Assembly: GCA_965204695.1 (NCBI GenBank)
Contig: OZ242007.1
Coordinates: forward strand, 296,480-360,479
Source of the DNA: Arenicellales bacterium
Lineage (GTDB): Bacteria > Pseudomonadota > Gammaproteobacteria > Arenicellales > JAHEKD01
Direction: 5' to 3'
DNA length: 64,000 bases
In this document: piece after piece, positions 2,762 through 27,267 of the stretch
Numbering within the stretch: position 1 is the first letter of the stretch
Layout of the letters: the number at the start of each line of letters is the position of its first letter
Translations under genes and position numbers: made by a program
The notes under the pieces: generated by a model
Database searches by the model: none
What the model was told of the DNA's origin: nothing
Seen by the model: the letters and a program-made list of their open reading frames with translations, nothing else

Positions 2762-2792
2762 GGCCTGATAGAGTTCTAATATCTATCAGGCC
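2762..2792. repeat. 11-bp perfect inverted repeat hairpin (terminator or REP-like)
   Basis: GGCCTGATAGA-gttctaata-TCTATCAGGCC. Confidence 0.55.
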
Positions 2793-2899
2793 CGTTTCAC
2801 TTCCCGGTGATGTATCCCGTCAGAGGATATGAGACAAAGTTGATGTTCTGAACAAGAGAGACTTCTGTTAATTTAATAGTAATTTATAGGAGTCTTAAG

Positions 2900-3262
2900 A
2901 TGAGTAAATATAACTCAGAGAAATTAGTTAAAGCAATTAAACGCAACACCCGTCATAAATATTCAGCCGATGAAAAGATTCGGATTGTATTAGACGGTCT
3001 TCGAGGTGAGGATAGTATTGCCGAGTTATGCCGCCGGGAAGGGATCAATCAGAATACGTATTACCGTTGGAGCAAAGACTTTCTTGAAGCCGGGAAACAA
3101 CGTTTGGCCGGTGATATTAAGCGTGAAGCCAATTCAGAGGAAGTGACTGAACTTCGCAAAGAAAACAATCAGCTAAAACATGCACTGGCCGATGTTGTTT
3201 TGAAGAATACGGTGCTTAAAAAAAGTGTGCTTGGCTTGGACTCGACGTGGGACGACGAATGA
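2900..3262 (+). CDS. IS3 transposase OrfA (HTH)
   Basis: KYSADEKIRIVLDGLRGEDSIAELCRREGI...YYRW followed by a leucine-zipper-like segment. Confidence 0.9.
   Translation: MSKYNSEKLVKAIKRNTRHKYSADEKIRIVLDGLRGEDSIAELCRREGINQNTYYRWSKDFLEAGKQRLAGDIKREANSEEVTELRKENNQLKHALADVVLKNTVLKKSVLGLDSTWDDE
3218..3225 (+). other. -1 programmed frameshift site (A7G) of the IS3 element
   Basis: AAAAAAAG near the end of orfA; orfB is in the -1 frame relative to orfA. Confidence 0.7.
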
Positions 3263-4239
3263 GTTTGTCGGCGGCTGAAAAAGTGGAAATTATCCATATA
3301 GTTGAAGCCAGTGAACTTCCCGTGAGTAGGACATTAGCGGAACTGGGTATTGCTCGCAGCAGTTTTTACCGTTGGTATCAACTCTATCAAATGGGTGGCC
3401 CTGATGCATTGGAAAGTCATTGTAAATCTCCCCAACGGTTCTGGAACAAACTCCCCGAATCAGTCAAAGAGCAATGTCTCGAGATTGCACTTCAGTACCC
3501 GGAGAAATCACCTCGTGAACTGGCCTGGCAAATTACCGATGAACACAGGTACTTTATCTCTGAGTCCAGTGTTTACCGTATTTTGAAGGCCCATGACCTG
3601 ATTACCTCACCGGCCTATATTCTGCTATCGGCCAGTGATACCTTCCATACGCCAACCAAGCGAATCAATGAATTATGGCAGACTGATTTTACCTATTTCA
3701 AAATCATCGGCTGGGGTTGGTATTATCTGTCTACCGTACTGGATGATTATTCACGGTTTATTCTGAGCTGGATGCTCACTAGTACCATGGGCGCGGGTGA
3801 TGTCAAAGACACCCTGGATCAAGCGATTGCTGTAACGGGTGTGACAAATGTGCCTGTTAAACACCGACCACGGCTACTCAGTGATAATGGCCCGGCGTAT
3901 CTATCCGGTGAGCTGAAAGATTACCTGGCTTATCATCAGATGACGCATACTCGTGGAACACCGTACCATCCGATGACTCAGGGTAAAATTGAACGCTATC
4001 ATCGGTCAATGAAAAACGTCGTCAAACTTGAGCATTATTATCTGCCTGGCGAACTCGAACAAGCCATTGAACAGTTTGTTCATCATTACAACCACGAACG
4101 CTATCATGAGTCGTTAGACAATGTGACACCGGCGGATATGTATTATGGTCGATATCAGCAAATCATCGATGAGCGAGCCGTTATTAAACAACAAACGTTA
4201 AACCAAAGGAGGTGCGAAAACCTAAAACTGTGTGCCTGA
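3247..4239 (+). CDS. IS3 transposase OrfB (DDE integrase core)
   Basis: WQTDFTY, LDDYSR, SDNGPAY, GKIERYHRSMK, YNHERYHESL. Confidence 0.92.
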   Translation: MGRRMSLSAAEKVEIIHIVEASELPVSRTLAELGIARSSFYRWYQLYQMGGPDALESHCKSPQRFWNKLPESVKEQCLEIALQYPEKSPRELAWQITDEHRYFISESSVYRILKAHDLITSPAYILLSASDTFHTPTKRINELWQTDFTYFKIIGWGWYYLSTVLDDYSRFILSWMLTSTMGAGDVKDTLDQAIAVTGVTNVPVKHRPRLLSDNGPAYLSGELKDYLAYHQMTHTRGTPYHPMTQGKIERYHRSMKNVVKLEHYYLPGELEQAIEQFVHHYNHERYHESLDNVTPADMYYGRYQQIIDERAVIKQQTLNQRRCENLKLCA

Positions 4240-4241
4240 TC

Positions 4242-6140
4242 TCAGGCAAGTGATATGATCGGATAGTCTCTCTTAATTTTAAGAACTAACTGTCCCAAAT
4301 CATCTGACGACATACACTCACCACTACTTATCCGGTACATCCCCGACTCACTCACCTGAAACTCAACCACTAACTGGGCATCCAAATCATTCGACTCAAC
4401 CCCTGAGGTAACCTGACGGTAGCCTTTCACCCCATCCCGGACATACCCCTGTAACCCCATCCGGGTATCCAATTCAGCCCGTACATCTCCCCAGTCAATC
4501 GGGGAAAGAGAACTCAATTCGCCGTAACTCGACCCCACCTCAAACGGCCCGTAATAATGTTCTGAACCGTCACTGTCGATACTCGACAGCCCCACACTCA
4601 TTAACTGGTCGATCGAACCCGGTATACGGACACGTTTACTGTAACTCTGCGGCTCAACCGCATTACCACTGCCACTTCTAACATACCAGTTGTGTAACTT
4701 CTCCCAATCCCCATCAACGCCGTCTAACCCCCATAACTGAAAACCAACATTAAATAACTCACTACTCGTACCCCAGTCAAACGACACCTTATCGCCCTCT
4801 CGCTCACTGGAAAAATGAGATAACGTGACAGGGAGTGTTCCAGTAGATATTACATAATCTTCCACTTCACCATCCATGGCCCCGCCCGTTGGCTGAGGTG
4901 AATTATCATCAAAAAAGCCCGATGCCGTATCCGTGGTAATCCTAATTCGAGCAAAGGTCCTGTTAGGCGATTGTGTCTCAACATCACCTAAATCTGTCCA
5001 AATTAGAACATAATCGTTAGTCGCTGAGTTAGCCGGTACATTACCCGTGGTAAATGTGCCATCATCATCCGGGTGTGTATTTGCCGGATTAGTGACAGAA
5101 CGCTCTGCATCTGAAAACGAACCGTCCACATCAAAATCCAGCCAGCTCACCAGTTGCGCTGGTCTCGCACTATTGTTGGTCGCCTTAACCACCACACAAT
5201 ATTCATTCTCTGCGGTAACATAGGTACCATTCGAACCCGTACACCTCATATCACCTGCTGCTTGATATGATTGGAATTCCACCACACCATCTTCATCGTC
5301 GAAATTATCATTGTCATCACCCTCTGCATTTGATTGTGGAATTCCTGTCGCTTCAAAATCGACGGTTGTGCCCAGCATAAGCATTGGCGAATCATCAACA
5401 CCGCAATGAACTGGTTCGTCAGAACTCCCCATACCATAAAGTCCATCCGGCGCATCACCTTGGTCTGAAGGAAGATAAAATAACACTGAATGACCATCAC
5501 CCCCGGAAGGATTAGTTCCAGATGCAGTGATTTCCTGATAAGAACCAGGAAACACGATGGTTCCGCAACCAGCAGATGGATTGTCTCCATTATTCAATTG
5601 ACAACCACGGTTTCTCGCCCCTCTTGTATTAACATTCACTATATTGGTTGCAGCATTGACTTCAAATTCATTGTTTCCCGATACCCTTACAAAATTAACA
5701 GGGTTGCCGGATACATCCGTTGTCGCACTGTAATCCCATTGGGCCCCATCAATATTAAAAAAGGATTTATGGAGGTTGTTTACGGGTCTATTGAAACTCA
5801 AATTATACGTATAACCGTTGCCTGCTGGATTTCTTAAGAATAATGATAGTCGATTTACAAACAGTGGTGGATCTCCTGGTGTGAACCAGTTGTTCCCTGA
5901 AAGATTAGGGTCTGATTGAAAGCCCGGTGCTGCAGCAGCCGGGGAACTTCCTACATTACCGATAGCTGCTGTTTGCGTAATCAAGGCCACAACGGAACCA
6001 CCACAAAAAGATGCGTCCTCTGTAAGAGGATCTCCATCGCCAGCATTAGTGAATACTGCCCAGTCTGCATTAACAGAATTAATTTCCAGGGCAATAGTAA
6101 TTAAACAAAAAGCAAATAATAAGGTCCTAAATTTTGTCAT
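4242..6140 (-). pseudogene. Secreted GEVED-domain protein truncated by IS3; probably the N-terminal part of a C25-peptidase-type large protein
   Basis: AGGAGG RBS, signal peptide, DQGDAP...DDEDGV...SWLDFDVDGSF...ARIRI...GEVEDY, then TLPVTL and VVEFQVSESGMYRIS. The native sequence stops at 4317; the last 24 aa are read from the IS3 right end. Confidence 0.75.
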
Positions 6141-6877
6141 TTCAACCTCCTAAAAATTGATATTGTCTACGCCATAAAAGTATTGAGATGCATCGTTTAA
6201 GCATGTTCAGTGTACATCCTGAATCAGTGAGTTGGCGTCAAAAAATGACAAAGAAAATAATGATAAAAAATTGAAGCCGGGTAAAAAATTTTTCCTGCGT
6301 GATACCCGTAGACAATGATGGCCGTATAAACCCCGTAGCCAGATGTGAATTGTGTTTCATACAAAGTCCCTCTGCGATAACGAGACAATTAAAAATCAAG
6401 CCGAACGCACCGGCCGTCACCCCTTGAAAACCGCTCGTTCGCCCTGCAGTATGGTTATTATTGTAGATGATAAGGCATTGTTTCACAATACCTCAATTTT
6501 ATTATGGAAATCTGACAGATTATTGGACATCCAACAAACCGGGCATTATCACGTAGTGTCTTCACTTGTATTGCCGGAGTTACCATAAAATTTGTTCTTT
6601 CAGTAGTGTTCTTTTCCTCAGCAAATTTGTACTTGCTCATTTGCCGTGCTAGATAATTTAAGACATGAATACCAATTTCTTTGTTTGTCATTGTGAACAC
6701 TAAATGCGGCATGACGAGTAAGTTAATGGGGCATTAGCAATAGAAAATAATATTCATGTGGTTGTAAGGTTATTTGCTTCTGATTGTAGCTCAAGATCTC
6801 AATGATGATCCGCAGGTTGGTGCCTGGCGGAAAAGGGAAGATTATTTTTTAGGCAATATGCAGGAAAATTTAAGATG

Positions 6878-8290
6878 TTAAGAGCTTAAGCGTTGCTCGA
6901 TGTATGTCTTAATGTTTTCTATGTTGGGTTTCATTACGTCATATTTTCTAGGCTTATCTTCGATACCTTCATGATTGGCTGGTCGGTCTGGTTTATGACC
7001 TAAAGCTTCGATCACTGTTGCCTCGAATTTGGCTGGTAATGCTGTTTCCAGACAAATCATTGGAATACCTTCCTGCCTGAAATCTTTGGCGACTTTAATG
7101 CCATCGGCAGTATGGGTATCGATGACTAAATCGTAGTGACTTTTGATTTCACGGATGATCTCAATTCGATCTTGATGATTACTGCTGCCGGATTTAAAAC
7201 CGTAGTTTTGAATTTTTTCGAAATATTCTGTGTTCGATAAATCAAAATAGCCATTGGACTCGACTTGACTCCATAATTCAGCAACTATTTTTGGATTACG
7301 GCCTACTAAATCATATATAAAACGTTCAAAGTTAGAAGCTTTGGAAATATCCATTGATGGACTAGAGGTAATGTGAACATCGTTTTCATCACGAACACGA
7401 TAGACACCTGTGCGGAAGAATTCATCAAGTACATTGTTCTCATTAGTCGCTAAAACCAATTTTTCTATAGGCAAGCCCATTTGTCGGGCAATATGTCCTG
7501 CATAAATATTGCCAAAATTACCACTCGGTACGGTAAACGAAACTTTTTGATTATTACTGACTGTAGCGTCTAGATAACCCTTAAAGTAATAAACCACCTG
7601 AGCAGTGACTCTGGCCCAGTTGATTGAATTCACTGTACCGATTTTATAGCGAGCTTTAAATTCGGCATCATGACTAACGCCCTTGACCATATCCTGAGCT
7701 CGATCAAAGCTTCCTTCCACGGCAATATTGAAAATATTCGGCTCATCCAGGGAATACATCTGAGCTTCTTGAAATGGACTCATGCGTTGATGCGGTGACA
7801 ACATAAACACTCGCACATGGGATTTACCCAACATTGCGTATTCCGCACTAGGGCCGGTATCGCCTGATGTAGCACCGAGAATATTCAATTCTTGATTGTT
7901 TTTAGTCAAAATGTATTCGAACAAATTGCCAAGCAATTGCATGGCAATATCTTTGAAAGCTAAAGTCGGACCATTTGACAAGCCCAGTATGGCCAAATCA
8001 TCATTCAACCAGTTTAACGGCGTAATATCTTCGCTGCCGAATTTCTCAGCCGTATACGTTTTATTAATGATTTCCCGCAAATCTTCACTTGGAATATCCG
8101 TAGCAAAACGCGAAATAATCTCAAATGCGAGCTCAGGATAGCCCAGTGCACGCCAATTGGTTAATTCTTGATCTGTGATTTGAGGATAATGTTCACAAAT
8201 TGATAAGCCACCATCATCAGCCAAACCAGCTAATAATATTTCAGAAAATGACTTAGTGGCCATACCACCACGTGTGCTTACATATTGCAT
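6878..8290 (-). CDS. thrC: Threonine synthase
   Basis: MQYVSTRG, GPTLAFKD (PLP Lys), GATSGDTG, NSINWAR, VPSGNFGN, SPSMDI. Confidence 0.96.
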   Translation of the reverse strand: MQYVSTRGGMATKSFSEILLAGLADDGGLSICEHYPQITDQELTNWRALGYPELAFEIISRFATDIPSEDLREIINKTYTAEKFGSEDITPLNWLNDDLAILGLSNGPTLAFKDIAMQLLGNLFEYILTKNNQELNILGATSGDTGPSAEYAMLGKSHVRVFMLSPHQRMSPFQEAQMYSLDEPNIFNIAVEGSFDRAQDMVKGVSHDAEFKARYKIGTVNSINWARVTAQVVYYFKGYLDATVSNNQKVSFTVPSGNFGNIYAGHIARQMGLPIEKLVLATNENNVLDEFFRTGVYRVRDENDVHITSSPSMDISKASNFERFIYDLVGRNPKIVAELWSQVESNGYFDLSNTEYFEKIQNYGFKSGSSNHQDRIEIIREIKSHYDLVIDTHTADGIKVAKDFRQEGIPMICLETALPAKFEATVIEALGHKPDRPANHEGIEDKPRKYDVMKPNIENIKTYIEQRLSS

Positions 8291-8437
8291 TAGAGTAGTC
8301 GCAAAATTTTGGGCTATTATACCTAGACCGCCAAGCGGCAAGAAATAATATCAGTGCTTTTATTCGAAGATTCACAACACTTTAAACTATTTGTTGTCAT
8401 GGCTGTCAGAATAACTTCAATACTACCAATTAATCTT

Positions 8438-9814
8438 ATGATTATTACCAGATTTTTTCGCACGTCCTTATCAGCTTTGGTTTTGCTGGTTTTCTTTTAC
8501 TCAAATCCAGGATTTGCGCAACAAAGCGAAGTTCCCAAAATCGAAAATTTCGTTTTAATCGCTTTAAGTAAAAACCAACAGGAATTTGATAATGCATTAG
8601 CTGATATTAAAAATGGCTGGCAAGACAGTTATACAACAATGATACTTGAATCCCTAACCTTTATTCGTAGCCCGAGTCATTATGGACAATTAATCGGATT
8701 TTTACGTGAACAGACTGGACAAGACTTTGGCTACGACCCAAATGCCTGGTATGAATGGTTATGGTCACTAGATTATCAACCTCATCCGGACTATGCCAAA
8801 TTCAAATCCACCTTATACGGACTAATCGATGATCCATTTGCCGGATATTTTTCTAACCAACGAGAATCAACTATCCGCCTGGATGAAGTACGTTGGGGAG
8901 GTGTAAGACAAGATGGAATTCCGCCACTAAGACAACCGAAAATGATCAAGGCTGATGAAGCTGATTACCTGGATGACTCTAATGTCGTGTTTGGACTCGA
9001 AGTGAATGGCGATATACGCGCTTATCCAAAACGCATACTGGCTTGGCATGAGATGTTTGTCGATAAAATTGGTGGTGAGGCCATTGCCGGTGTTTATTGC
9101 ACGCTATGTGGCACCGTCATCATTTATGACATTGTTGTAGATGGTGAACGACATGAAATCGGTACTAGTGGATTCCTTTATCGCTCCAACAAACTTATGT
9201 ATGACAAGAGCACCCAATCGTTATGGTCTACATTTGGGGGTGAACCTGTAATTGGTCCACTTGTTGGCAAAGGTATAAAACTACCCCATCGGTATGTTGT
9301 GACAACAACCTGGGGCGAATGGAAAAAGCGCCACCCAGATAGCTTGGTTTTATCCTTGGATACCGGACACAATCGCGACTACGGCGAAGGAGTGGCCTAT
9401 CAACAATATTTTGCTACTGATGATTTGATGTTTAATGTTCCAAAATTGGACAAACGGCTGAATAACAAATCTGAAGTACTAGGCCTGATCTTCAATCAAC
9501 ATCCTGACAAACCCTTAGCGATTGATGTGAATTATCTCGCTGATAACCCGATTTACTATGATCAAATTGAAAGCAGTCAATTTGTAGCTTTAACTGATAA
9601 CTCTGGTGCCATTCGAGTCTATGAAAACAACGGGGTTAAATTCAATCAGTGGGATCAAAAATATCAAGTAGTCGATGAAAACGGGCTAGCCTGGACGTTA
9701 TCAGAATCGCAGCTTGAATCAGAAAATGGAGATGTTTTGTCACGATTACCTGCTAATCGTGCATTCTGGTTTGGTTGGTATTCGGCTTATCCGCACACCA
9801 GGCTTGTACAATAA
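8438..9814 (+). CDS. DUF3179-domain exported protein
   Basis: Signal peptide, WGGVRQDGIPPL, RAYPKRILAWHE, YCTLC, GTSGFLYRSNKLMYD, FWFGW...P.T; start uncertain (ORF track 8354). Confidence 0.8.
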   Translation: MIITRFFRTSLSALVLLVFFYSNPGFAQQSEVPKIENFVLIALSKNQQEFDNALADIKNGWQDSYTTMILESLTFIRSPSHYGQLIGFLREQTGQDFGYDPNAWYEWLWSLDYQPHPDYAKFKSTLYGLIDDPFAGYFSNQRESTIRLDEVRWGGVRQDGIPPLRQPKMIKADEADYLDDSNVVFGLEVNGDIRAYPKRILAWHEMFVDKIGGEAIAGVYCTLCGTVIIYDIVVDGERHEIGTSGFLYRSNKLMYDKSTQSLWSTFGGEPVIGPLVGKGIKLPHRYVVTTTWGEWKKRHPDSLVLSLDTGHNRDYGEGVAYQQYFATDDLMFNVPKLDKRLNNKSEVLGLIFNQHPDKPLAIDVNYLADNPIYYDQIESSQFVALTDNSGAIRVYENNGVKFNQWDQKYQVVDENGLAWTLSESQLESENGDVLSRLPANRAFWFGWYSAYPHTRLVQ

Positions 9815-9876
9815 CTCCTAAGAAATCAATTTATTCTCCCCACACTTACGTATGGGGAATATCTGACTATGCAAGA

Positions 9877-10091
9877 TGCATTTATTCATCCACGAGCATC
9901 TCTAATTCCTGTGTTCTTTCAGGTGCCCCGATCTGTTTCAAAATGTACGTCAAAACGAGCGATTGGATACATCTTTGACCTGTCAGGTTCGAATAGCACA
10001 ACAGATCCCTCGCAAGCCCGACATTGAGTTATAGTGTTGATAAGCTGGGATAAATCCGTGGTATTCTGTCGCTTACGCGAACGCTAATAAA
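9877..10091 (+). repeat. Dispersed non-coding repeat family A, copy 1 (MITE-like)
   Basis: Aligns with 14875-14995 (same strand) and 46660-46994 (opposite strand); shared core CCGTGGTATTCTGTCGCTTACGCGAACG. Confidence 0.8.
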
Positions 10092-10169
10092 CGTTACTGC
10101 AAAAAAATCTTCATGTTCATTTCCTTTGTTAATTTCATCAACTAGGAATATCATAATTCCAGAATTTTC

Positions 10170-10212
10170 TTGACATTTAATTGATAGGAAATAATAATGA
10201 AAACGCTTTCAT
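10170..10212 (+). promoter_or_regulatory. Sigma70 promoter overlapped by a LacI-type operator, upstream of the TRAP operon
   Basis: TTGACA (10170-10175), 17 bp, AATAAT (10193-10198); palindrome ATGAAAACGCTTTCAT (10197-10212) fits TGWAANCGNTTWCA. Confidence 0.7.
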
Positions 10213-10338
10213 AATTTATATTTTAGAATGCCATAACTGAATTATTAAAATATTGTTATACTATTTTAGTAATTTCATTTTTGATTTTTATTGTAAACCT
10301 TATTGCTGAGGAACAACCAACTACTAGAGGAAAGAAGA

Positions 10339-11325
10339 ATGTTGAAGTCTATTCGTATTTTTATTGCCGCATTACTTGTCTCGTTTCAAGCTATCGCCGA
10401 TGATCCGATCAAAATAAATATGAGTCTGGTTTTTACTGAGAACGAACTGTTAACTCAGGAATTGATCAAAGTGACCGATAAAATTCGGGAGCGCACTGAA
10501 GGTTCTGTGGACATCACGGTTTTCCCAGGAGGTCAATTACCGGTTTATAAAGACAATATGGAACAAGTTGTAAATGGAGCAAACTGGATTGCTGTTGAAG
10601 ATTTAACTTATCCTGGTGATTATGTACCAGATTTTGCTGCTTTAGCGGGCCCCATGCTTTACAACAGCTATGATGAATATGTTGCCATGATGGACACTGA
10701 TTTAGTTGCTGATTTGACTGCTCAGTTGGAAGCAAAAGGCATCAAAATACTGAACGCCGATTATATGTTTGGTTTCAGACACATGATTACTAACAAAGAT
10801 ATTAAAGCACCTGCAGACTTGGAAGGTTTAAAAATCAGAGTTCCTAAGAGTCAGCTTTTTATCAGCACATTGCAGGCTATGGGTGCTTCACCTACTGCAC
10901 TTCCCTTCCCTGAAACTTACGCAGGCGTTCAACAAGGTGTAGTTGACGGGCTTGAAGGTTCAATCTTAACGATGTATGGCACTAAAATTTACGAAGTCGC
11001 CAAGGTCATGTCACTGACAAAACACTTCCTTGGAACTGTTGGTCTTTACATATCTCCCCAAGTCTGGGACAAGCTATCAGCCGAACAACAACAAATCGTC
11101 ATGGAAGAAATCGAAGCTGGCGCTGCATCAAATAATGCTAATTTGGTTAAGCTTGACGAGGAATATATTGGCAAGCTTGAGGAACAAGGTGTGACCTTTG
11201 TCGAATCTGATACAGCCGCCTTCAATGACTTAACGGCTCCTGTTTATGGCGAGTTTCCTGAGTGGAGCGAAGGTATCCACGCTACTATCATGCAAGAACT
11301 CGAAAAAATTCGAAGCGGCAGTTAA
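10339..11325 (+). CDS. dctP: TRAP transporter substrate-binding protein
   Basis: Signal peptide, VFPGGQL, GFRHM, DLEGLKIRV, ETYAGVQQGVVDGLE. Confidence 0.92.
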   Translation: MLKSIRIFIAALLVSFQAIADDPIKINMSLVFTENELLTQELIKVTDKIRERTEGSVDITVFPGGQLPVYKDNMEQVVNGANWIAVEDLTYPGDYVPDFAALAGPMLYNSYDEYVAMMDTDLVADLTAQLEAKGIKILNADYMFGFRHMITNKDIKAPADLEGLKIRVPKSQLFISTLQAMGASPTALPFPETYAGVQQGVVDGLEGSILTMYGTKIYEVAKVMSLTKHFLGTVGLYISPQVWDKLSAEQQQIVMEEIEAGAASNNANLVKLDEEYIGKLEEQGVTFVESDTAAFNDLTAPVYGEFPEWSEGIHATIMQELEKIRSGS

Positions 11326-11424
11326 AAATTTAATGTCATGCCGGAGAGCTGGTGTGCTTTCCGGTAGTGTTATCCTAGATTCCGATAATGCCTATAGCGA
11401 GGGCTAGCAAGATTGTATTAATAC

Positions 11425-11901
11425 ATGGGGTTCCTACTTAAAAACTTAGAAGAAATTCTTGCTTCAATAGCCATTTCAATTACTGTTTTGATGGTTATTA
11501 CTAACGTAGTGCTACGTTATGGCTTCAACTTTGTTTTACCCTGGAGTGAGGAGTTATCAGTCATCTGCTTCATCTGGGCGACTTATTTGGGTATTAGTTC
11601 TTGTTACAAACACAAGTTGCACATGGGTGTTGATGTAATCTTATCGTTCCTGCCTAGTAAAACGATTATCCCCTTCAAACTCATTATTGCCTGCTTTTTA
11701 CTCGGATTAAATCTCTACATGGCTTACCTGAGCTATCAGTACACCATGTTATCCAGCAAGGTCACGCCGGTGATGGGCATGTCCTATTTTTCTATTAATG
11801 CTGTGCTAGTAGTGTGTTTTGCCCTGATGGCCATTCACACAGTTAGGTTTATTATTGAAGATATTAAGCTAATCAAAGCTGGTTCGGAACAGGCAAGTTG
11901 A
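11425..11901 (+). CDS. dctQ: TRAP transporter small permease
   Basis: Four TM segments, NVVLRY, WSEEL, HMGVD. Confidence 0.92.
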   Translation: MGFLLKNLEEILASIAISITVLMVITNVVLRYGFNFVLPWSEELSVICFIWATYLGISSCYKHKLHMGVDVILSFLPSKTIIPFKLIIACFLLGLNLYMAYLSYQYTMLSSKVTPVMGMSYFSINAVLVVCFALMAIHTVRFIIEDIKLIKAGSEQAS

Positions 11902-11902
11902 G

Positions 11903-13186
11903 ATGGAAGTTTATCTGCCAATTATAATTCTGTTTGCGCTTTTCCTGCTCAATGTACCCATTGCATTTTCCTTGATTGCTTCAGCGATGTACTATTTTTT
12001 GTTTATTAATGATTCATTGCCGACAACACTGGTCATGCAACGCTTCATCACATCCGCTGAATCATTTCCTCTGCTCGCGATTCCGTTTTTTATTATGGTG
12101 GGCTCGGTGATGAATTATTCAGGTATCAGTCGTAGCTTACTCGCCTTTGCAGATTCGTTAATAGGCCATAAAACCGGCGGTTTGGCACATGTCAATGTCA
12201 TTCTCAGCACCATGATGGGAGGAATTTCTGGCTCCGCAAATGCCGATGCTGCGATGCAGTCTAAAATATTGGCGCCGGAGATGACTAAACGTGGTTATGG
12301 TTTACCATTCACGGCAGCGGTCACTGCTGTATCATCGAGTATCAGCCCAGTTATTCCACCTGGAATTAACTTAATAATCTATGCTTTACTGGCGAGCGTT
12401 TCCGTACACCAAATGTTTATCGCTGGTTATGTCCCTGCATTATTAATGGCCTTGTCGTTAATGATTGCCATAACCATCATTGCCAACAAACGCAACTATA
12501 AACCTTCCAGGTCTGAACCAGCTTCAGCCAGTGAGCGATGGCATTGTTTTGCCAAAGCAATCCCTGCTTTGTTTATTCCTTTTGGCGTAATTCTGGGCAT
12601 GCGATTCGGTTTGTTCACCCCCACGGAAGCTGGTGCAATTGCCGTATTCTTATGTGCAATTATTGGTTTTGTTGTTTACAAGGAATTAAAGATCAGCCAT
12701 TTCCCTCAAATTCTTCGAGAAACTGTGCAAGGTACCAGTGCAGTGATGTTTATCATTATTGGAGCTCTTGTTTTTGGTTATTACATGACGCTAGAACAAA
12801 TCCCACACAGCATAGCCTCAGCATTAATTGCACTTACTGATAATAAATTCCTGCTTCTTCTATTAATAAACATACTATTACTGGTTGTCGGCATGTTCAT
12901 CGAGGGTGGCGCGGCAATGATAATTCTTACACCATTATTACTGCCTGCAGTGTTAAATCTGGACGTGGATCCAGTTCATTTTGGTGTCATTATTATCGTC
13001 AATATCATGATTGGGGGTGTTACACCACCATTCGGGTCTATGATGTTCACAGTCTGTTCTATTCTCAAAGTCAAAATTCTTGATTTCGTTAAAGAAGCCC
13101 TGCCGTTATTGTTTGCACTGCTAATTGTGCTGATGATTCTCACCTACTCAGAAGGTTTGGTAATGTTTTTGCCAAGATTGATCTAA
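11903..13186 (+). CDS. dctM: TRAP transporter large permease
   Basis: FPLLAIPFF, GISGSANAD, VIPPG, FTPTEAG, DPVHFG, TPPFG. Confidence 0.93.
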   Translation: MEVYLPIIILFALFLLNVPIAFSLIASAMYYFLFINDSLPTTLVMQRFITSAESFPLLAIPFFIMVGSVMNYSGISRSLLAFADSLIGHKTGGLAHVNVILSTMMGGISGSANADAAMQSKILAPEMTKRGYGLPFTAAVTAVSSSISPVIPPGINLIIYALLASVSVHQMFIAGYVPALLMALSLMIAITIIANKRNYKPSRSEPASASERWHCFAKAIPALFIPFGVILGMRFGLFTPTEAGAIAVFLCAIIGFVVYKELKISHFPQILRETVQGTSAVMFIIIGALVFGYYMTLEQIPHSIASALIALTDNKFLLLLLINILLLVVGMFIEGGAAMIILTPLLLPAVLNLDVDPVHFGVIIIVNIMIGGVTPPFGSMMFTVCSILKVKILDFVKEALPLLFALLIVLMILTYSEGLVMFLPRLI

Positions 13187-13259
13187 ATCTTCTAAGTCAA
13201 GATAGTTTCTTAACTCGTTTATCGGCATAATCCTCCGCCTTTGAATACCGGAATTCTTT

Positions 13260-14159
13260 ATGTGGTTTAGAAACCTCTATCTTTTTAAATTTGAAAATCC
13301 ATTTAACTTTAACGCTGAAGATTTACAAGCTGCCCTTGAAAAAAACCAATTAGATGCTTGCCCTCCCGGACAAAGGGAAACTCTTGGCTGGATATCCCCT
13401 TTTGGACGCAATAATGAGTTGTTAGTCTTAGCTAACCAAGGTTTTTATTTAATAAGAATGGCGAAACAGGAACGAATTCTCCCAGCTAGTGTTATTAAAG
13501 ACCATCTATTGGAACGAGTAGATCAAATTCAAATCGGACAAGGTCGTAAAGTTGGTGGCAAGGAACGGCGTGAAATTAAAGAAGAACTGGAATTTGAACT
13601 ATTACCCAAAGCATTTACCAAGACGTCTCATATCGATGCCTGGATTGACAGTAATAACTCCTGGCTAGTCATTAACACCAGTACTGCATCCAAAGCTGAA
13701 GCTTTAGTAAAGTTGCTGCAAAATTCACTGGGTAACTTATCAGTAACTTTACCTGAAACCGAATCTTCACCAGCTGCCACAATGACAAACTGGCTTTATC
13801 TCAATAAGCTTCCACGCGCTTTTGAGTTTGGTCATGAATGCTTGTTTAAATCAAGGGATGATCAAATGAGCACGGTGACGTTCAAAAAACACGAACTCTA
13901 TAGCAACGAAGTTCATCCTAATCTTGAAACTGGCAAGTTTGTAGCGCAAATAGAATTGATCTGGAGTCAAAAAATCAAATTTATACTGACAGAAGAGTTA
14001 GTTCTTAAACGTGTCAAATTTCTCGATGTCATGACAGATAATCTTGACAAACAAGGTTTTGAAACGAATGAAGAAAAAATAGATACAGAATTTGCCTTAA
14101 TGACAGGTGAAATAACACAACTGCTGGATGAGCTTATGCAAGAGCTCAATGGTAATTAG
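13260..14159 (+). CDS. rdgC: Recombination-associated protein RdgC
   Basis: MWFRNLYLF, GWISP, ERILPASVI, LLPKAF, DTEFALMTGE. Confidence 0.93.
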   Translation: MWFRNLYLFKFENPFNFNAEDLQAALEKNQLDACPPGQRETLGWISPFGRNNELLVLANQGFYLIRMAKQERILPASVIKDHLLERVDQIQIGQGRKVGGKERREIKEELEFELLPKAFTKTSHIDAWIDSNNSWLVINTSTASKAEALVKLLQNSLGNLSVTLPETESSPAATMTNWLYLNKLPRAFEFGHECLFKSRDDQMSTVTFKKHELYSNEVHPNLETGKFVAQIELIWSQKIKFILTEELVLKRVKFLDVMTDNLDKQGFETNEEKIDTEFALMTGEITQLLDELMQELNGN

Positions 14160-14283
14160 CAAAGTAGATTACTTAGCAAATAAAAAGTATCTTTACTGAA
14201 ATCTTGATGATGAGAAAAGTGGGCGGGCCGGGAATAGTCGCGGCTATTTATGCAACCCAACCAAGATGAAATAGCATTATTGC

Positions 14284-14664
14284 TTAAAACATTCTGCCCC
14301 GCTCAATAGTAGCAGGATAAACATTTCCCCTTCCATCGCTCCAAAGCAAAGTCTCAGCCTCTTTGCTCACATCATAACAAGCTTCAGTTTTACTTGGCGG
14401 CCACACTGAACAGTAACGGCCTTGTTCGTTAATTCGCCAAGTTCCAAAGGTGGGTCGTTTACCTTCTTCTTGGTAAATAGTCCGCCCGTTTGGATCAAAA
14501 TATTGTTGATAAACAGTTTCGCCCCAAATGCCGTTCATGGTATTGCCTGACAACAATTGTTTGAATTCATCGGCTGTCATTGTTACTGGTGCCTTATTCT
14601 GGTTCCAATAAAATCCCAATGCGACAATAAAAATCACTAACAATATAAGCAAGTTTCTTTTCAA
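14284..14664 (-). CDS. Small exported or membrane-anchored hypothetical protein
   Basis: N-terminal TM segment, then LLSGNT...QYFDPNG.T.Y...G.W.....YCSVWP; TTG start with GGAG RBS. Confidence 0.7.
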   Translation of the reverse strand: MKRNLLILLVIFIVALGFYWNQNKAPVTMTADEFKQLLSGNTMNGIWGETVYQQYFDPNGRTIYQEEGKRPTFGTWRINEQGRYCSVWPPSKTEACYDVSKEAETLLWSDGRGNVYPATIERGRMF

Positions 14665-14692
14665 GCCGGACTCCGATTTTTAATCGCTAGCG

Positions 14693-14822
14693 AGGGTTGG
14701 CTTGCCACGGGATAACATGCAAAGTAAATAGATACCTCCTGGGAGTTTCATTTAACAACAATTTCATCCTGAAAGAACACGTAACACAGTTCAATAGATT
14801 CCCCCGGCTAAAGCCGGGGTAC
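14693..14822. repeat. Repeat family B (REP/IS200-type hairpin remnants), copy 1
   Basis: GGCTTGCCACGGGATAACATGCAAAG and AATAGATTCCCCCGGCTAAAGCCGGGGTA recur, with one segment inverted, at 29095-29170. Confidence 0.6.
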
Positions 14823-14874
14823 TAACCGTAACAGTCCTTGCGGGTTGATACAATGAACATCACATCTTAAATCA

Positions 14875-14995
14875 TGTGTGTGATGTTCAATCTATATACA
14901 CTCATTCATCCGCGGGCAAGCTCGGCATTGAATTATAGTGTTGAAGAGCCGGGACAAGCCCGTGGTATTCTGTCGCTTACGCGAACGTTCATAAA
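14875..14995 (+). repeat. Repeat family A, copy 2 (internally deleted)
   Basis: Both ends match copies 1 and 3; the central ~115 bp are missing. Confidence 0.75.
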
Positions 14996-15189
14996 TCATT
15001 TGACATTCTGTCAGATAATAGTAGCCTACATGTAATGCCTTGACACAGAGTTTTTTTAACAGTGAATAATTACATAGTTCCCAATTCACGCCGTCATCTA
15101 AAGCACGACCTAGTGGTCTGACTACTCTTTGTTTTTTTCCTTGCTATATCAAGCAAGTCTTGTTTATTTCCTTTTAACTGTTCAGGGTT

Positions 15190-22427: not shown

Positions 22428-23462
22428 TCACTCCAAACGTTTAGAGACCTTAACAATTTGCTCCCAGGTTTGCTCAGGTAAAGAAATACCACTAGCACGA
22501 ATTTTTTCACGATAGTCACGCTCGCGTTCACCGGGAACTTCGACTTTATCAAAGCCAGGTGCAGGTGGACACTCGCGTAATTCGGTGAGAATTTGTTCCG
22601 CAATGGTTTGCATGGTGTGGGGTTCACGGTAGCGAGTAGTGTCCAGTGCAATCATTAACCAGCTTCCCTCAGTGGATACTGGTCCTAACATGGCTTCTGC
22701 TATTATTTCTGCAACTACAGCCAATGCGTAACCCTTAGGACCACCAGACGGCAGTATGGCACCACCACGAAAGTAATCTTCCGGATCACGACTGATCTTT
22801 CCTTCTGGGTTCATTAAGGCATTGTCAGGCAAAAGAGCACCCGCACTACGTGCGGCATAAATCCAGCCGCCGGCAATTTTGGAAGTGGCGAAATCTAAAA
22901 CTACCGGTCCGTGTTCTCCGCCCGGTATACCGATACTGTATGGATTGGTTGGCAAGATCGCTTTGCGTCCACCGTAGGGTACAACCTGGCGCCAATTTAC
23001 ACGCCCCCCACCACCAATGATAATTGCCAGCATTCCTTTGTTTGCTGCCTGCTCAGCAAAAGTACCTATTCGACCTGTATGGCCAACGTTGCGAATCGGT
23101 ATTGCAGCAATACCGTTTTGTTTGGCCTGCTGACACACCTGATCAGTGGCAATAGACATAGCGGGGATACCAATACCACCATTGCCATCTACTTCAATAG
23201 CGCCGAATTTGTTGGTCACAATTTCAGGCTCAACATCGGCACGCATATAACCACTTTCGAATTGCTCAACATATTGAAGCGTTCGCATCAGGCCATGTGA
23301 TTCCACGCCACAAAGGTTTGAATCAGCCAAGTGGTCTGCTACTTCTTTAGCAATCTTCTGTGAACAGCCAACACCTTTGAATATGCTTGTCACAAGCACG
23401 ACAACTTCATCTACTGCGACTGTGACTCGTTCACCTTTGAGTTCTAGTTTGCTGCGCACCAT
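22428..23462 (-). CDS. Ldh_2-family (type 2 malate/lactate/ureidoglycolate dehydrogenase-like) oxidoreductase
   Basis: GVESHG, HTGRIG, TNPYS, LDFATS, KGYAL, VPGE. Confidence 0.88.
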   Translation of the reverse strand: MVRSKLELKGERVTVAVDEVVVLVTSIFKGVGCSQKIAKEVADHLADSNLCGVESHGLMRTLQYVEQFESGYMRADVEPEIVTNKFGAIEVDGNGGIGIPAMSIATDQVCQQAKQNGIAAIPIRNVGHTGRIGTFAEQAANKGMLAIIIGGGGRVNWRQVVPYGGRKAILPTNPYSIGIPGGEHGPVVLDFATSKIAGGWIYAARSAGALLPDNALMNPEGKISRDPEDYFRGGAILPSGGPKGYALAVVAEIIAEAMLGPVSTEGSWLMIALDTTRYREPHTMQTIAEQILTELRECPPAPGFDKVEVPGERERDYREKIRASGISLPEQTWEQIVKVSKRLE

Positions 23463-23746
23463 AGTTTTTCAAGTTTGATTTGTTGTCAACCTCAGAAGAT
23501 TCTCACATTTATCCTAGTTTGCGAAGGGTGCTAAAACGTCTCAATATATGGATTCCTACTCAACGGTTATAGTTGAGAGGTTAATCCAACAACATTTTTT
23601 TGAGGAGCCAATACGATGAAAAATGAAGGGTATCGCCCAATACCATCAAGACATCAAAACCCTAAGATACGCACATATCGTTCATCTAGCATCTGTCATG
23701 TTGCTTTAAATCACGAGTCCTTATACACGATGATGGCAACCCAAGA

Positions 23747-24199
23747 TCACAATTGTACCGAACTCAATCCCTGCTCTTGCCAATTCTGGTAAGTCGACAT
23801 CCGCAGCCCGATTCGGTCATAATACACTGCATAATAACCACCTTCCATTAGTGTCACTGCATCCGGACGATTTTCCATAACATCCTGAGCCATCACACCG
23901 ACATATTCAGTCTTGGTCACATCGCTAATATACCTAAATCGATATAATGGATAACCTTGCTCCGACTGACATAGATAATGAATATCCGTCTTGAGACGTT
24001 GATCCGACGGAGGTGGCGGTGGTCCACCAGAAATCTGTGCCCAAGCACTGTCCTTGGCTAGCAAGGTAATCATCGCTGGTGGTGTATATTTCACCAATTT
24101 CTCTAATGCTTCTCGACGGTCAAAGTCCATAGGCCCACCATCTTGTGACGCATCAATATCAAGTATATCCTTGGTTTGCCGTGTCTGTTTGCTACTCAT
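23747..24199 (-). CDS. Twin-Arg/YTPP leader and Gly-Pro core fused to a Peptidase_S74 (intramolecular chaperone auto-processing) domain
   Basis: DRREALEKLVKYTPPAMITLL...AWA-QISGGPPPPP-SDQRLKTDI...LYRFRY...GVMAQDV...PDAV...YYAVYY; AAGGA RBS. Confidence 0.8.
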   Translation of the reverse strand: MSSKQTRQTKDILDIDASQDGGPMDFDRREALEKLVKYTPPAMITLLAKDSAWAQISGGPPPPPSDQRLKTDIHYLCQSEQGYPLYRFRYISDVTKTEYVGVMAQDVMENRPDAVTLMEGGYYAVYYDRIGLRMSTYQNWQEQGLSSVQL

Positions 24200-24348
24200 T
24201 GTGTTTCCTTTAACTTGATTTATCTCTTAATGGTCAAGCAACAAATTTGCCATCCTGAGGCACTGCTAAGTGCCGTGAGGAAATCCTAATCGCTGCTCGG
24301 GCATTGACCGTAGTCACTGCCTCATTTGAACTGAAAGCCAGATCATGA

Positions 24349-24376
24349 AGATTTCTCCACTGCGGTCGAAATGACA
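24349..24376. repeat. REP-like palindrome
   Basis: AGATTTCTCCACTGCGGTCGAAATGACA directly after the stop of the large gene; GTCAT...ATCT-bounded type. Confidence 0.55.
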
Positions 24377-24384
24377 GAGGAGTG

Positions 24385-27213
24385 TCACTTCGGCCTTGCC
24401 AAATACACCCATTTAAAACGGTGTTCGGTGCTGAGAGTGGTAAATGTATAGGTCTGTAATTGACCTCGGCTAAGTACACTTACCGTTCGGCCGCTTTCGA
24501 CATCCACCAATCTCATCCGCCAAAAACGCCTCGTCTTGTAATTCCCTTCCCAACTCAATGTTACTTCTCGGCCAATTTTGTCACTCTTAACTATGAACTC
24601 CCATTCCTCTCCTTTGCGCCAATATTTGCGCTTTCTTAGGTCAGAGGCATAGTCTCCCGAATCAGTGCCCCAGCCATCTTGTGGAAATACAATGGTTAAA
24701 TACGGATTACTGAAGGGTGGTAATTCTTTTAAATCACGTCGATCTTTACCGTCTTGGCTGTCGCTATACCAGCCCAGGTAGTTATGTTTATCTACCATGC
24801 CGCCGTCCTCGTCTGATTCGGCCTGCAGGCGTACCCACCATTCTCCGTATTTTAAACTGGTATCTTGCGCAGCTTCCGCCACATTAATCCACGATAACCA
24901 CCAGGGCATGTCATCCAGAGTTGACTCTGTCATCCCGGCCGTAGTGGAGGGATCTTTCTTCAAGCCCGTTTCAACGTTCATTTTGGAAAAGAGTGAGGCA
25001 ACTGAAGGAATGGAATAATTCGAGACGTCGGTGGATCTCCTAAATACAGCTCGAGCTTTTGTAAATATTTCAGCTATCAAAGAGCTCTCTTCGTCCGCTT
25101 CTGTCTCAATTGAAGCTGCCGCTGGTGGAGCAATAGGTGATGCCACACAAGCTGGACTATCACTCACCGGCCCTTTGGGGATCAACAAGGTGACATCCTG
25201 TCCCTCGCTATTATTCAGGGTCTGTACCCAATAACCCTTGTAAGCTTCAAATACGGCCACATCCATCGGACTTCCCGTGCTCAATGCCGTATAGCCGGCA
25301 TCATAGTTCCAAAATGTATCGGTCAATAATAACTGGTTTTGTGCCTGTTCAGGATCACAAACCTGGTTGCCATTAACCACAATACGGATATTTTTCCAAT
25401 TTACATCGTTGGTGAACGGATGGCTGATTAAGTTGAATTTACCGTCACCTTCTACCAGGTCAATCTCAAAACAGCCTAAATTAGACGGACAGTTAGGATC
25501 GGCAGTATCAACCGGTGTGTCAGCACCATCCGGAATGAATTCAAGGTCTACACCTGTTCTCTGTAACACCCAATAGCCTTTGCCTTGTTCCAAGGTGTCT
25601 GACAAAGCCATCATCACGTACGAATCGGTGCTTTCGTCACGTTTATACACCACCCAATTTATGTTGTAATCAGTACTGGCTAATCCAGTTGGAGTCGTGG
25701 TGCCAAATACGTCCTCAACCGTTTTTGAGGGCGCATCTTTAGATAACCCCACCATGGTCCAGCGGTTATTCTTTAAAGTAACTGGTTCACCTGTCAGGTC
25801 CAATGCACCGACTTCAAATGCGCCGATATCACATGAACCATCGAAACGTAAAAAACCGCGTTGGTCGGTGGTTTCACACACGGCATTATTGGCTGTTGGC
25901 GCATCAATGGCTGGGGAACCATCCAGCAAGGCATGAGTATGAGTCGGACCGCCATTGTCTTGCAAGGGGCCAAGTTTGGCATCCGCAACTACGGTTGCAC
26001 CACCACAAGCTGTGGTGGCGATATTGTCAGCACCTGCGAATAGTGTGCCAAACACAGAGCAATCGGCATTAAGCGGACTGACCGTTGCAACATTATCAGC
26101 AATAATACTGTTACGAGACGATAACACACGACCAGACGCCACATACACTCCACCTCCTGCTCTATTTAACGCATTACCTGTGACTGCCGTGTTGCCGGTC
26201 ACCGTACTGTTAGTCAGTGAGATCGCGCCGGGGTTATTGGCGACTCGCAGTCCCCCGCCCAAGTATTTTGCTGTATTTCCTGATACCGTGCTGTTGTATA
26301 AATCAACAGTTGCACTGATGGCAAAAACACCGCCTCCGCTGCTAGCGTAATTTCCGCTGATCAAGCTCTCTCTGACAACAGTTCTTGAATAATTAGAATA
26401 AATACCACCCCCGGCATTACTCGTACTTACATTATCTGAAATAACACTGTTTTCGATTAGAGTGGGCGTAAGAAAATTAGTGATGCCGTTTTTGACATTG
26501 CCGCTGACCACACTGTTATTCAGTGTCAGTGTATTGCTGCGAATAGCATGAATACCGCCGCTGAAACGCGCCGAGACATTATTAGACACCGTCGTATTAT
26601 TCAGATGCATACTGGCACCATTAGTCAATGACAGTCCACCACCGCCATCAATTCGGGGTGTCGCTATCGTTACACCGGTAGTGGTATTGCCCGTCACCGT
26701 GCAGTCATTCAAATTGACAGTGCCGCCGCTAGAGGCCACACCACCGCCGTCAGTGGCCACCAATCCACCGGTAATCGTTAACTGATTTAAAGTAACTGTC
26801 GCACCCGCCCCCACATACATCACTCGTGAAACTTGATTGCCGTCGATAGTTGTATTTTCTCCTCCATCGTTGATCGTCACACTTTTGGTGACGCTTAATT
26901 GCCCCTGGGTGGTATCAATGGTATTGCCTGCCACACCCGCTCCAAAACTAATTGCATCATTAGTGCCCAGGGCATTTATACTTTCGTTAGGGAAACAGCC
27001 GTTTTCCAATATAAATCCAGCATTGATAGTATCTATAGCTTCACGAAGCGTGCAGGTTGTGTCTGTTGCTGTTGAAACATCGCCGGTCGAATTCACCTCA
27101 ATTGTCGCTGCATGCGCCGCCTGAAACGCCAATGCCTGAGCAATCGCCAAGCTGAGCAATTTAGGTTTGAGTGTGTTTACCCCAGATTTACTTTCATTCC
27201 GCTTGTTTACCAT
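24385..27213 (-). CDS. Large secreted CSLREA / right-handed beta-helix / choice-of-anchor Q domain protein with an extended C-terminal region
   Basis: KPKLLSLAIA...AHA signal; CTLREAI; GGG(I/V)...NxTVSGN repeats; LGPLQDNGGPTHTHAL...SPAIDA...DQRG...CDIGAFE. ATG 27213 has an AAGGA RBS. Confidence 0.82.
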   Translation of the reverse strand: MVNKRNESKSGVNTLKPKLLSLAIAQALAFQAAHAATIEVNSTGDVSTATDTTCTLREAIDTINAGFILENGCFPNESINALGTNDAISFGAGVAGNTIDTTQGQLSVTKSVTINDGGENTTIDGNQVSRVMYVGAGATVTLNQLTITGGLVATDGGGVASSGGTVNLNDCTVTGNTTTGVTIATPRIDGGGGLSLTNGASMHLNNTTVSNNVSARFSGGIHAIRSNTLTLNNSVVSGNVKNGITNFLTPTLIENSVISDNVSTSNAGGGIYSNYSRTVVRESLISGNYASSGGGVFAISATVDLYNSTVSGNTAKYLGGGLRVANNPGAISLTNSTVTGNTAVTGNALNRAGGGVYVASGRVLSSRNSIIADNVATVSPLNADCSVFGTLFAGADNIATTACGGATVVADAKLGPLQDNGGPTHTHALLDGSPAIDAPTANNAVCETTDQRGFLRFDGSCDIGAFEVGALDLTGEPVTLKNNRWTMVGLSKDAPSKTVEDVFGTTTPTGLASTDYNINWVVYKRDESTDSYVMMALSDTLEQGKGYWVLQRTGVDLEFIPDGADTPVDTADPNCPSNLGCFEIDLVEGDGKFNLISHPFTNDVNWKNIRIVVNGNQVCDPEQAQNQLLLTDTFWNYDAGYTALSTGSPMDVAVFEAYKGYWVQTLNNSEGQDVTLLIPKGPVSDSPACVASPIAPPAAASIETEADEESSLIAEIFTKARAVFRRSTDVSNYSIPSVASLFSKMNVETGLKKDPSTTAGMTESTLDDMPWWLSWINVAEAAQDTSLKYGEWWVRLQAESDEDGGMVDKHNYLGWYSDSQDGKDRRDLKELPPFSNPYLTIVFPQDGWGTDSGDYASDLRKRKYWRKGEEWEFIVKSDKIGREVTLSWEGNYKTRRFWRMRLVDVESGRTVSVLSRGQLQTYTFTTLSTEHRFKWVYLARPK

Positions 27214-27267
27214 AGTCCTTATTCCCATATTAATCGTCTATGCCTACCCCTCTTCCTCTTTGATTAA

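Follow-up and report, generated by a model that had tools for sequence, protein, structure and literature searches.

The 64,000-nucleotide stretch of an Arenicellales genome analysed here (contig OZ242007.1, positions 296,480 to 360,479; hereafter the window) carries, on its minus strand, a 150-amino-acid (aa) open reading frame (ORF) in which a short leader-like segment and ten further residues, QISGGPPPPP, are followed directly by a Peptidase_S74 (hereafter S74) domain. A purine-rich, AAAGGAAAC-like ribosome-binding site was found immediately 5' of its start. A preliminary description of the locus, made from the sequence alone, had listed a series of motifs in this ORF (R28-R29, YTPPAM, AWA, QISGGPPPPP, S65-D-Q-R-L-K70, GVMAQDV and PDAV), and all of them were present. 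The nine flanking ORFs scanned were ordinary metabolic or housekeeping genes (hydantoinase B, aminotransferase, Amdase, 2-hydroxyacid dehydrogenase, GST, Ldh_2, DapB, endonuclease V and OmpA), and the surroundings of the ORF are not phage-like, as the preliminary description had also held. No NCBIfam model matched the 150-aa ORF, and a scan of positions 23300..24600 for promoters and terminators returned nothing on the minus strand.

The identity of the C-terminal domain was confirmed by Pfam, residues 65-115 matching Peptidase_S74 (PF13884; E = 1.2e-7, 32.4 bits) above the gathering cut-off of 22. In a search among proteins of similar length, 125 of 147 candidates matched the ORF at E ≤ 1e-3; nearly all were 130-160 aa long with PF13884, and they are currently annotated as 'tail fiber domain-containing protein' or 'hypothetical protein'. 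A 32-row alignment (A1) displayed one architecture: the N-terminus varies, the leader after it is conserved (consensus DPxRREALxRLAKYTAPAMLALLAS..A.A), and a short segment separates this leader from S65-D66-R68-L69-K70. The alignment contained 22 invariant columns, including P41, L47, S65, D66, R68, L69 and K70. The Ser65/Lys70 dyad was invariant in 32/32 sequences, while an 8-row alignment of the leader (A2) showed R28, R29, Y38, T39, P41, M43, L47 and A54 all invariant. The AlphaFold2 model built on the 32-row alignment reached predicted local distance difference test (pLDDT) values of 93-98 over residues 70-150, and residues 1-60 were predicted to be disordered (block-mean pLDDT 33-54). Only 64 residues, predicted disordered, precede S74, and no trimeric fibre or spike of the kind borne by S74 proteins was found. 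The second half of the domain (residues 116-150) is short and of a distinct form, lacking the long coiled coil found in the family protein P0123.

When the family profile was compared with the PDB, SDxRLK aligned with the same motif of the tail fibre 8jov (E = 0.003) and of MyRF 7dc3 (E = 0.009). MyRF is cut between P586 and S587 in a reaction that depends on the S587/K592 dyad and on the trimer (PMC8326128). Based on this alignment, the cut in the window ORF is predicted to fall between Pro64 and Ser65. A Foldseek comparison of the AlphaFold2 model with the PDB gave 0/167 matches at E ≤ 0.001, which is uninformative, the query being the model of a single chain with a disordered N-terminus, taken from a domain that intertwines as a trimer.

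The leader contains YTPPAM, a predicted binding motif for a recognition element (RRE) of peptides made by the ribosome and modified after translation (RiPPs), of the [Y/W]xxPx[L/V/I/A/F/Y] type defined in PMC13381572. A profile built from 8 leader-core sequences and searched against 1.84 billion representative proteins retrieved 278 clusters (50% identity) at E ≤ 1e-3. Among 151 family proteins inspected (149 of the 150 listed, P0270 being left out, plus P0001 and P0015), 118 were at most 80 aa long, 23 were 81-120 aa and 10 were longer; 141 possessed an RR...[YWF]xxP motif, and just five possessed S74 (P0001, P0015, P0139, P0184, and P0123, the last by Pfam on the same protein in locus L011). 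Family members were mostly 50-70-aa peptides composed of the leader and a 2-20-aa tail, and no NCBIfam model matched any of the 10 short precursors scanned. Counted from the Tyr of the motif, Ala prevailed at positions 15 (87/140) and 17 (100/139), Ala or Gln at position 18 (82/139), and Ser (66/138) or Thr (14/138) at position 19 (Ser/Thr, 80/138). The tails of stand-alone members, such as ...AQSLGPPPPP (P0148), ...GPPPPPPPPPLP (P0127), ...ACVSPCT (P0144) and ...ACVSYCG (P0152), mirrored the apparent 'linkers' of the S74-fused proteins.

Three genes devoid of S74 ended exactly at ...ISGGPPPPP, the predicted S74 cut site: P0121 (62 aa), P0122 (64 aa) and a 67-aa ORF (L117 8315..8518, G001:C6) that neighbours an NTP_transf_5 gene and is followed by no S74 sequence downstream. 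The last two are nearly identical, and the N-terminal region of P0121 differs about as much as between fused paralogues. On related contigs, the same cores were found both free (...CIPTSITHCPV and ...ACIPTSIIKCLE, each ending at a stop codon) and fused (...ACIPTSIVHCPPPP/SD, the slash marking the predicted cut), and in metagenome loci the fused counterpart of ...CIPTSITHCPV was ...CIPTSIVHCPPPP/SD. Likewise, a free ...VIVISGPA lay beside a fused ...MVVSGGPPPA/SD, and a free ...AAAQSVPT beside a fused ...AAAQTAP/SD in genome G062.

The conservation of the ten residues differed between clades. In the window's own clade (9 sequences), pairwise identity was 1.00 for the core and 0.64 for S74, with the leader and the N-terminal region at the values given in the table below. 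In an alphaproteobacterial clade (18 sequences), the corresponding values were 0.83 (leader), 0.50 (core) and 0.88 (S74), the core being the most variable segment (e.g. CVSPCPP, CVSCA, AVSRIT and CFSRCQ). A mere linker fits neither pattern, as the short segment is hypervariable between conserved flanks in one clade and better conserved than the protease in the other. The preliminary description had anticipated a hypervariable core between a conserved leader and S74, which holds for the alphaproteobacterial clade but not for the window's own, whose core is not hypervariable but is clearly under selection.

These leaders probably acquired S74 on more than one occasion. In a single genus, near-identical leaders were joined to two different S74 types, the alignment of which ends at residue 108. 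A quickly built tree covering 100 S74 domains required the 'leader' label to change 8 times, and well-supported branches forced at least 2 origins, the tree being poorly resolved and five of its rows (L005, L008, L014, P0048 and P0139) being mislabelled 'other' by the pattern used. Taken together, the invariant dyad, the S74-less genes, the cores shared by free and fused genes and the probable repeated joining point to S74 as a self-removing follower; cleavage of the Pro64-Ser65 bond would again give a precursor of the stand-alone type.

Table. Features of the S74-fused precursor gene and of related genes. Coordinates without a locus name are positions in the window; the others are preceded by the locus to which they belong.
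Feature	Coordinates	Strand	Remarks
Whole precursor gene	23747..24199	minus	150 aa + stop; ATG start; variable N-terminus, leader, core, S74 follower
Residues 1-25, hydrophilic N-terminal region	24125..24199	minus	Little conserved; own-clade pairwise identity 0.17; pLDDT <50
Residues 26-54, conserved leader FDRREALEKLVKYTPPAMITLLAKDSAWA	24038..24124	minus	Own-clade pairwise identity 0.87
Arg28-Arg29, leader twin arginine	24113..24118	minus	In DRREALEKL; both invariant in A2 (8 rows); R29 in ≥90% of A1 (32 rows)
Y38-T-P-P-A-M43, predicted RRE-binding motif	24071..24088	minus	[Y/W]xxPx[L/V/I/A/F/Y] type; Y38, P41 and M43 invariant in A2
A52-W-A54, AxA site	24038..24046	minus	Resembles type I signal peptidase sites; proposed leader end, putative cleavage
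Residues 55-64, core QISGGPPPPP	24008..24037	minus	Identical in 9/9 own-clade sequences
Ser57	24029..24031	minus	Proposed core residue 3; candidate phospho-acceptor; codon checked by hand
Residues 65-150, Peptidase_S74 (intramolecular chaperone / autoprotease)	23750..24007	minus	Predicted cut between Pro64 and Ser65
S74 dyad codons	Ser65 24005..24007; Lys70 23990..23992	minus	Codons checked by hand
Upstream 947-aa secreted CSLREA / beta-helix / choice-of-anchor-Q protein	24385..27228	minus	Pfam and NCBIfam
KELPPF-related genes	L004 9164..9730 and 9700..13032; L117 4471..8165; L008 2..985		
Second-leader genes	L005 9247..10131; L008 1027..1809; L014 865..1779; L010; L029; L116 14949..15368	minus (L005, L116)	L005 at G000:C1 ~4.269 Mb

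The genomic context of the leader family was examined for modification enzymes. Among 80 genome loci centred on S74 genes, a hidden Markov model search found genes for an HprK-like kinase and an NTP_transf_5 protein flanking 4 of the 6 leader-type loci, compared with 1 of the 74 non-leader loci, this single match (L054) being weak and its S74 protein itself possessing a YQKPTL motif. A kinase or a transferase was also present in 21 of 38 metagenome loci with the leader, and in 14 of the 15 that were at least 4 kb long, counts that overstate independence because nine of these loci (L163-L171) are near-identical. In L020 (a Bradyrhizobium metagenome-assembled genome, MAG) and L041 (a Xanthobacteraceae MAG), the fused gene or genes were flanked on one side by a PqqD protein and an HprK-like kinase and on the other by a SunS-like GT2/TPR glycosyltransferase and an NTP_transf_5 protein, with further glycosyltransferases beyond. 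In G062, four tandem short precursors (...FAAAS, ...FATVSHPV, ...FATS and ...FAGS) lay directly upstream of a gene encoding a PqqD-kinase fusion, and at a second locus the free and fused precursors described above were followed by a PqqD-kinase gene in one row.

The window's own genome (G000) contained three S74 matches and just two leader-profile matches, the window ORF and a paralogue with 60% identity, both S74-fused. It also encoded one fusion of PqqD with an HprK-like kinase (G000:C1:4893742-4894932; Pfam PqqD E = 4e-7, P-loop GSGKST, weak Pfam Hpr_kinase_C), adjoining an NTP_transf_5 gene (PF14907, E = 6e-38). Full-length orthologues of the fusion were found in 4/4 genomes of the genus, which are the ones with leader-type genes, and 57 other relatives gave weaker or partial matches only. 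In G002, the S74-fused precursor adjoins the PqqD-kinase gene, and in G003 the genes for a 177-aa precursor, an NTP_transf_5 protein and the PqqD-kinase are grouped together. The PqqD and nucleotidyltransferase neighbours named in the preliminary description were recovered, together with the HprK-like kinase. A modelled complex of the RRE domain (residues 1-95) with leader residues 20-64 (score 0.28, mark 0.32) counts neither way.

In G064, a related leader of the type ARRAFLKK...ASAQ heads six tandem precursors with Cys-rich cores, and the two S74-fused genes of this genome, ~700 kb away, share both the ARRAFLKK-type leader and a core beginning with AQIYGGC. The six-precursor locus (L132, G064:C1:1764000-1783000, 327..15064) is a hybrid cluster that also encodes a SagB-like nitroreductase, a ThiF-YcaO protein, a PqqD-kinase, a GlcNAc-transferase/PqqD fusion and an 837-aa NTP_transf_5 protein; its precursor cores read IYGGCDTCDCDC..., and it probably makes azole-containing phospho/glyco-peptides.

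We consider it likely that the window ORF is the precursor of a RiPP resembling the linear polyphosphorylated peptides (LPP) of Bacillota, as a member of a large proteobacterial family that parallels them, with S74 as its self-removing C-terminal follower. Domain make-up, conserved motifs and the genomic association of the leader family with PqqD-kinase and NTP_transf_5 genes were all established by sequence and comparison. The reading of the ORF as a RiPP-type leader, a short core and a self-cleaving S74 domain, put forward in the preliminary description, is supported by these comparative analyses. In the proposed mechanism, the PqqD-type RRE fused to the HprK-like kinase would bind the leader through Y38xxPxM43, and the kinase would then phosphorylate a Ser of the core, most likely Ser57, which is the best candidate because it is core residue 3 as in LPP; the adjacent NTP_transf_5 enzyme would decorate the phosphate. 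S74 would trimerise and cut itself off between Pro64 and Ser65 by means of the Ser65/Lys70 dyad, leaving a 64-aa leader-core peptide built like the stand-alone precursors of the family. Finally, the leader would be removed between AWA54 and Q55, probably by type I signal peptidase after export, yielding Q-I-S(modified)-GGPPPPP. The benefit of the follower may be, at a guess, that it stabilises so small a peptide, presents it to the enzymes as a trimer or provides export with a folded cargo.

A broader proposal, plausible in our view but falling a little short of probable, is that S74 was recruited more than once as the built-in follower peptidase of phospho(glyco)sylated mini-peptides, which would form a large proteobacterial class not described so far. 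Their leaders would double as RRE baits and export signals, and with S74 a core of 10 residues would become a folded trimeric cargo able to release itself. No description of an S74-bearing RiPP precursor was found in the searchable literature.

The closest known system is that of LPP (Popov et al., Nat Commun 2026, PMC13381572), which comprises the precursor LppA, the RRE LppB, the HprK-like kinase LppK, the NTP transferase LppN, the SipW-like (archaeal-type) signal peptidase LppS and the MsbA-like exporter LppD. LPP precursors are 35-200 aa long and share YxxPxVLxHQxIxFETxxS, with variable C-termini; LppB is a discrete RRE that binds the YxxP motif, LppK places several phosphates on S3 of the core AQS, and leader cleavage by LppS is assisted by the RRE; LppN was inactive in the heterologous host (PMC13381572). 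The final product and its function are given as unknown in that paper, where LPP are stated to be restricted to Bacillota. The family described here shares with LPP the YxxP leader motif, the presence of RRE, HprK-like kinase and NTP_transf_5 enzymes, variable C-termini, several precursors per locus, loci situated among glycosyltransferase genes (here L020, L041 and L117) and a leader end resembling a signal-peptidase site; moreover, the phospho-Ser of the LPP logo lies 19 residues from the Tyr, which is the spacing of the Ser/Thr peak in this family. It differs in belonging to Pseudomonadota, in an RRE usually fused to the kinase instead of a discrete LppB, in leaders with RR and AxA, in far shorter cores (2-20 aa), in the C-terminal S74 of some members and in the SipW-type peptidase, a core LPP gene that was not found in five genomes here. 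The main text of PMC13381572 contains none of the terms 'S74', 'chaperone', 'Proteobacteria' and 'Pseudomonadota', and its supplements might list such cases.

In lasso systems, an HPr-kinase homologue phosphorylates a precursor Ser and a nucleotidyltransferase adds a hexose to the phosphate (PMC8498205). The phosphorylated lasso peptides paeninodin and pseudomycoidin thus resemble the present family in their homologous kinase and nucleotidyltransferase and in a YxxP/WxxP-type leader. They differ in that no gene resembling a lasso cyclase or B2 peptidase appeared in the ORF listings of the loci examined, which were not searched with profiles for either, and in their target, a C-terminal Ser; here, 15 short tails end in Ser and the core of the window ORF ends in Pro. 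With the intramolecular chaperone/autoprotease domains of phage endosialidases and MyRF (PMC8326128), the window ORF shares SDxRLK, the Ser/Lys(+5) dyad, the C-terminal position and the release of an N-terminal part, and with MyRF also the Pro before the Ser. The passenger is, however, a 64-aa leader-core peptide and not a trimeric fibre or a transcription factor, and no triple beta-helix lies upstream. Among NCBIfam models, the best matches were those of the 'HPr-rel-A system', i.e. TIGR04352 for the kinase (E = 1e-11) and the PqqD family chaperone TIGR04353 for the PqqD protein of L020 (E = 3e-5), with scores so far below the curated cut-offs that a different subfamily is indicated. Bufferins are RiPP precursors whose signal-peptide leader ends in AxA, which recalls the export-like leader found here; their enzymes differ from those described above, and they are not known to carry a self-cleaving follower.

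Several observations weigh against an LPP-like precursor at this locus. The kinase and transferase genes of the own genome are 4.57 Mb away from the window gene (the window starts at 0.296 Mb), and no RiPP enzyme adjoins the precursor among the nine flanking ORFs scanned in the window. The residue at position 19 from the Tyr is Ile in the window ORF, Ser57 being at position 20, and the own-genome kinase matched TIGR04352 (HprK_rel_A) at E = 1.2e-11 but with only 44 bits for a cut-off of 200, which indicates likeness at the family level only. The preliminary description had also listed an S26 peptidase among the neighbours to look for; none of the SipW type was found: TIGR02228 exceeded its cut-off in 0/5 genomes (G000, G001, G003, G062 and G064), whereas the B. 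subtilis control gave a match. Beside the own-genome kinase/transferase operon there was no obvious exporter, in the course of searches not aimed at exporters, and among the neighbours scanned against family libraries there was no radical SAM protein, again without a search aimed at it. To these can be added the near-identical metagenome loci mentioned above. Cleavage, phosphorylation and export are all steps that we infer; if S74 fires upon cytoplasmic folding, as in phage proteins and MyRF, it would cut before export, and what a peptide that is also made in an S74-less form would gain from it is left unexplained.

Some of the same features could be accounted for by export alone, the N-terminus being a plain Tat/Sec signal peptide with a short linker, the exported S74 domain the working product, and the kinase and transferase acting on other peptides; S74 might even be freed from a membrane-held signal, in a mirror image of the release of MyRF from its anchor. 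With its twin arginine, hydrophobic stretch and AxA (RREAL, then YTPPAMITLLA and AWA), the leader does resemble a Tat/Sec signal peptide, its hydrophobic region being short and containing two Pro, and the related leaders of L034 and L132 possess RRDFLKK, a textbook motif, and RRAFLKK, respectively. Moreover, a 107-aa protein (L043 10001..10324, plus strand) consists of a lipobox (LMGAGC), four residues (VPAP) and S74, three of the nine leader-type S74 loci (the window, L004 and L034) have no kinase nearby, and S74 terminates many other bacterial proteins with ordinary signals. Nevertheless, we regard this explanation as unlikely. S74-less genes still encode both leader and core but end precisely where S74 would begin, the own-clade core is better conserved than S74, the L034-type leader is common to the six Cys-rich precursors clustered with YcaO, PqqD-kinase and NTP_transf_5 genes in the same genome, and kinase and transferase genes are enriched at leader-type loci (4/6 vs 1/74).

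The preliminary description had also raised the possibility that the small protein acts in trans as a chaperone for the upstream 947-aa beta-helix protein or its relatives. Adjacency within the genus is what speaks for it, five of the eight leader-type loci (the window, L004, L007, L008 and L117) adjoining a gene with the KELPPF...FKWVYLARP domain. One of these five adjacent genes is, however, the S74-less 67-aa form, and no tblastn match to the KELPPF-domain proteins was obtained at the other loci (96 in all, 80 from genome contigs). The neighbour matches the right-handed Beta_helix family of Pfam, and right-handed beta-helices are generally single-chain folds. The S74 chaperones covered in PMC8326128 act on their own chain and need trimerisation, and a role in trans is, on balance, very improbable. 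Still less credible, to the point of being nearly negligible, is the notion that a tail-fibre or adhesin gene decayed to this ORF, which would then have no function of its own. Such decay would be in keeping with the origin of S74 domains in phage fibres and with a passenger of only 10 residues, but the reading frame is unbroken, the same genome holds a paralogue with 60% identity, 125 homologues have a similar length, and the dyad and the leader are invariant. The homologues keep both leader and S74, contrary to the deleted remnant without a conserved leader that the preliminary description had considered; a search aimed at longer proteins with this leader gave none, which is weak evidence.

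Other genes around these loci and other uses of S74 were also recorded. KELPPF...FKWVYLARP is the C-terminal domain of ~155 aa of the 947-aa protein and has no Pfam or NCBIfam match; together with the middle domain of that protein, it recurs in separate genes (188 aa and 1110 aa) by the paralogous precursor and in genus relatives. The AlphaFold2 model of the 188-aa protein had a mean pLDDT of 53.6, and the protein atlas gave unnamed clusters only. At the paralogous precursor locus, the beta-helix gene adjoins tandem Phage Tail Collar genes, as well as a GT1 glycosyltransferase gene in G001; these two to three genes (PF07484, E = 1e-28 to 4e-30; L004 13090..14127, plus strand, and L117 2818..4381, minus strand) are phage-fibre-like modules in a non-phage setting.

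A second leader type, with RR, a hydrophobic stretch and W-x-K-P-V-[VI]-x-x-V-x-L-P-A-H-A-Q-T-S, heads longer proteins with Thr/Pro-rich regions, most of which end in S74 (260-304 aa), one 139-aa protein being without it. In place of the YxxP of the window ORF it possesses WxxP, reminiscent of the way in which the RREs of LPP and paeninodin discriminate between Y and W. In a subgroup with FxxPxV leaders (L020 9968..10411 and L041 9956..10921; P0036, P0048, P0076 and P0078), all cores possessed an N-x-S/T sequon (NGT, NGS or NTT), and the loci encoded the SunS-like GT2/TPR glycosyltransferase (TIGR04195, E = 1e-21, below the cut-off) and mannosyltransferase-like proteins.

At L021-L096, S74 ends long low-complexity proteins in many Alphaproteobacteria and in some Saccharibacteria and Patescibacteria, these proteins being either Gly/Arg-rich (...GGGGRGGGGGRR/SD) or Ala/Ser/Asn-rich (...AASNAASNIRVP/SD). 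S74 seems to be common as a C-terminal module of presumably cellular fibrous proteins. The 255-aa P0105 is a 'midcut-by-XrtH protein' (NF033207, E = 1.7e-24, residues 15-177) that ends in S74, so that the 'mid-protein cut' ascribed to the exosortase XrtH may partly be S74 self-cleavage. In the lipobox-bearing protein of L043, self-cleavage by S74 would detach the domain from its lipid anchor.

If the proposed role of S74 is correct, the window ORF and its relatives would be the first RiPP precursors carrying their own protease of phage origin, and a self-cleaving follower derived from phage tail spikes would be a new design principle for such precursors. LPP-type chemistry would extend from Bacillota to a much larger set in Pseudomonadota, of at least 278 clusters, and a concrete function would be at hand for S74 domains that occur in neither phages nor MyRF. 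With the same core present in nature in both fused and unfused precursors, a ready-made experiment on the contribution of the follower would then be available.

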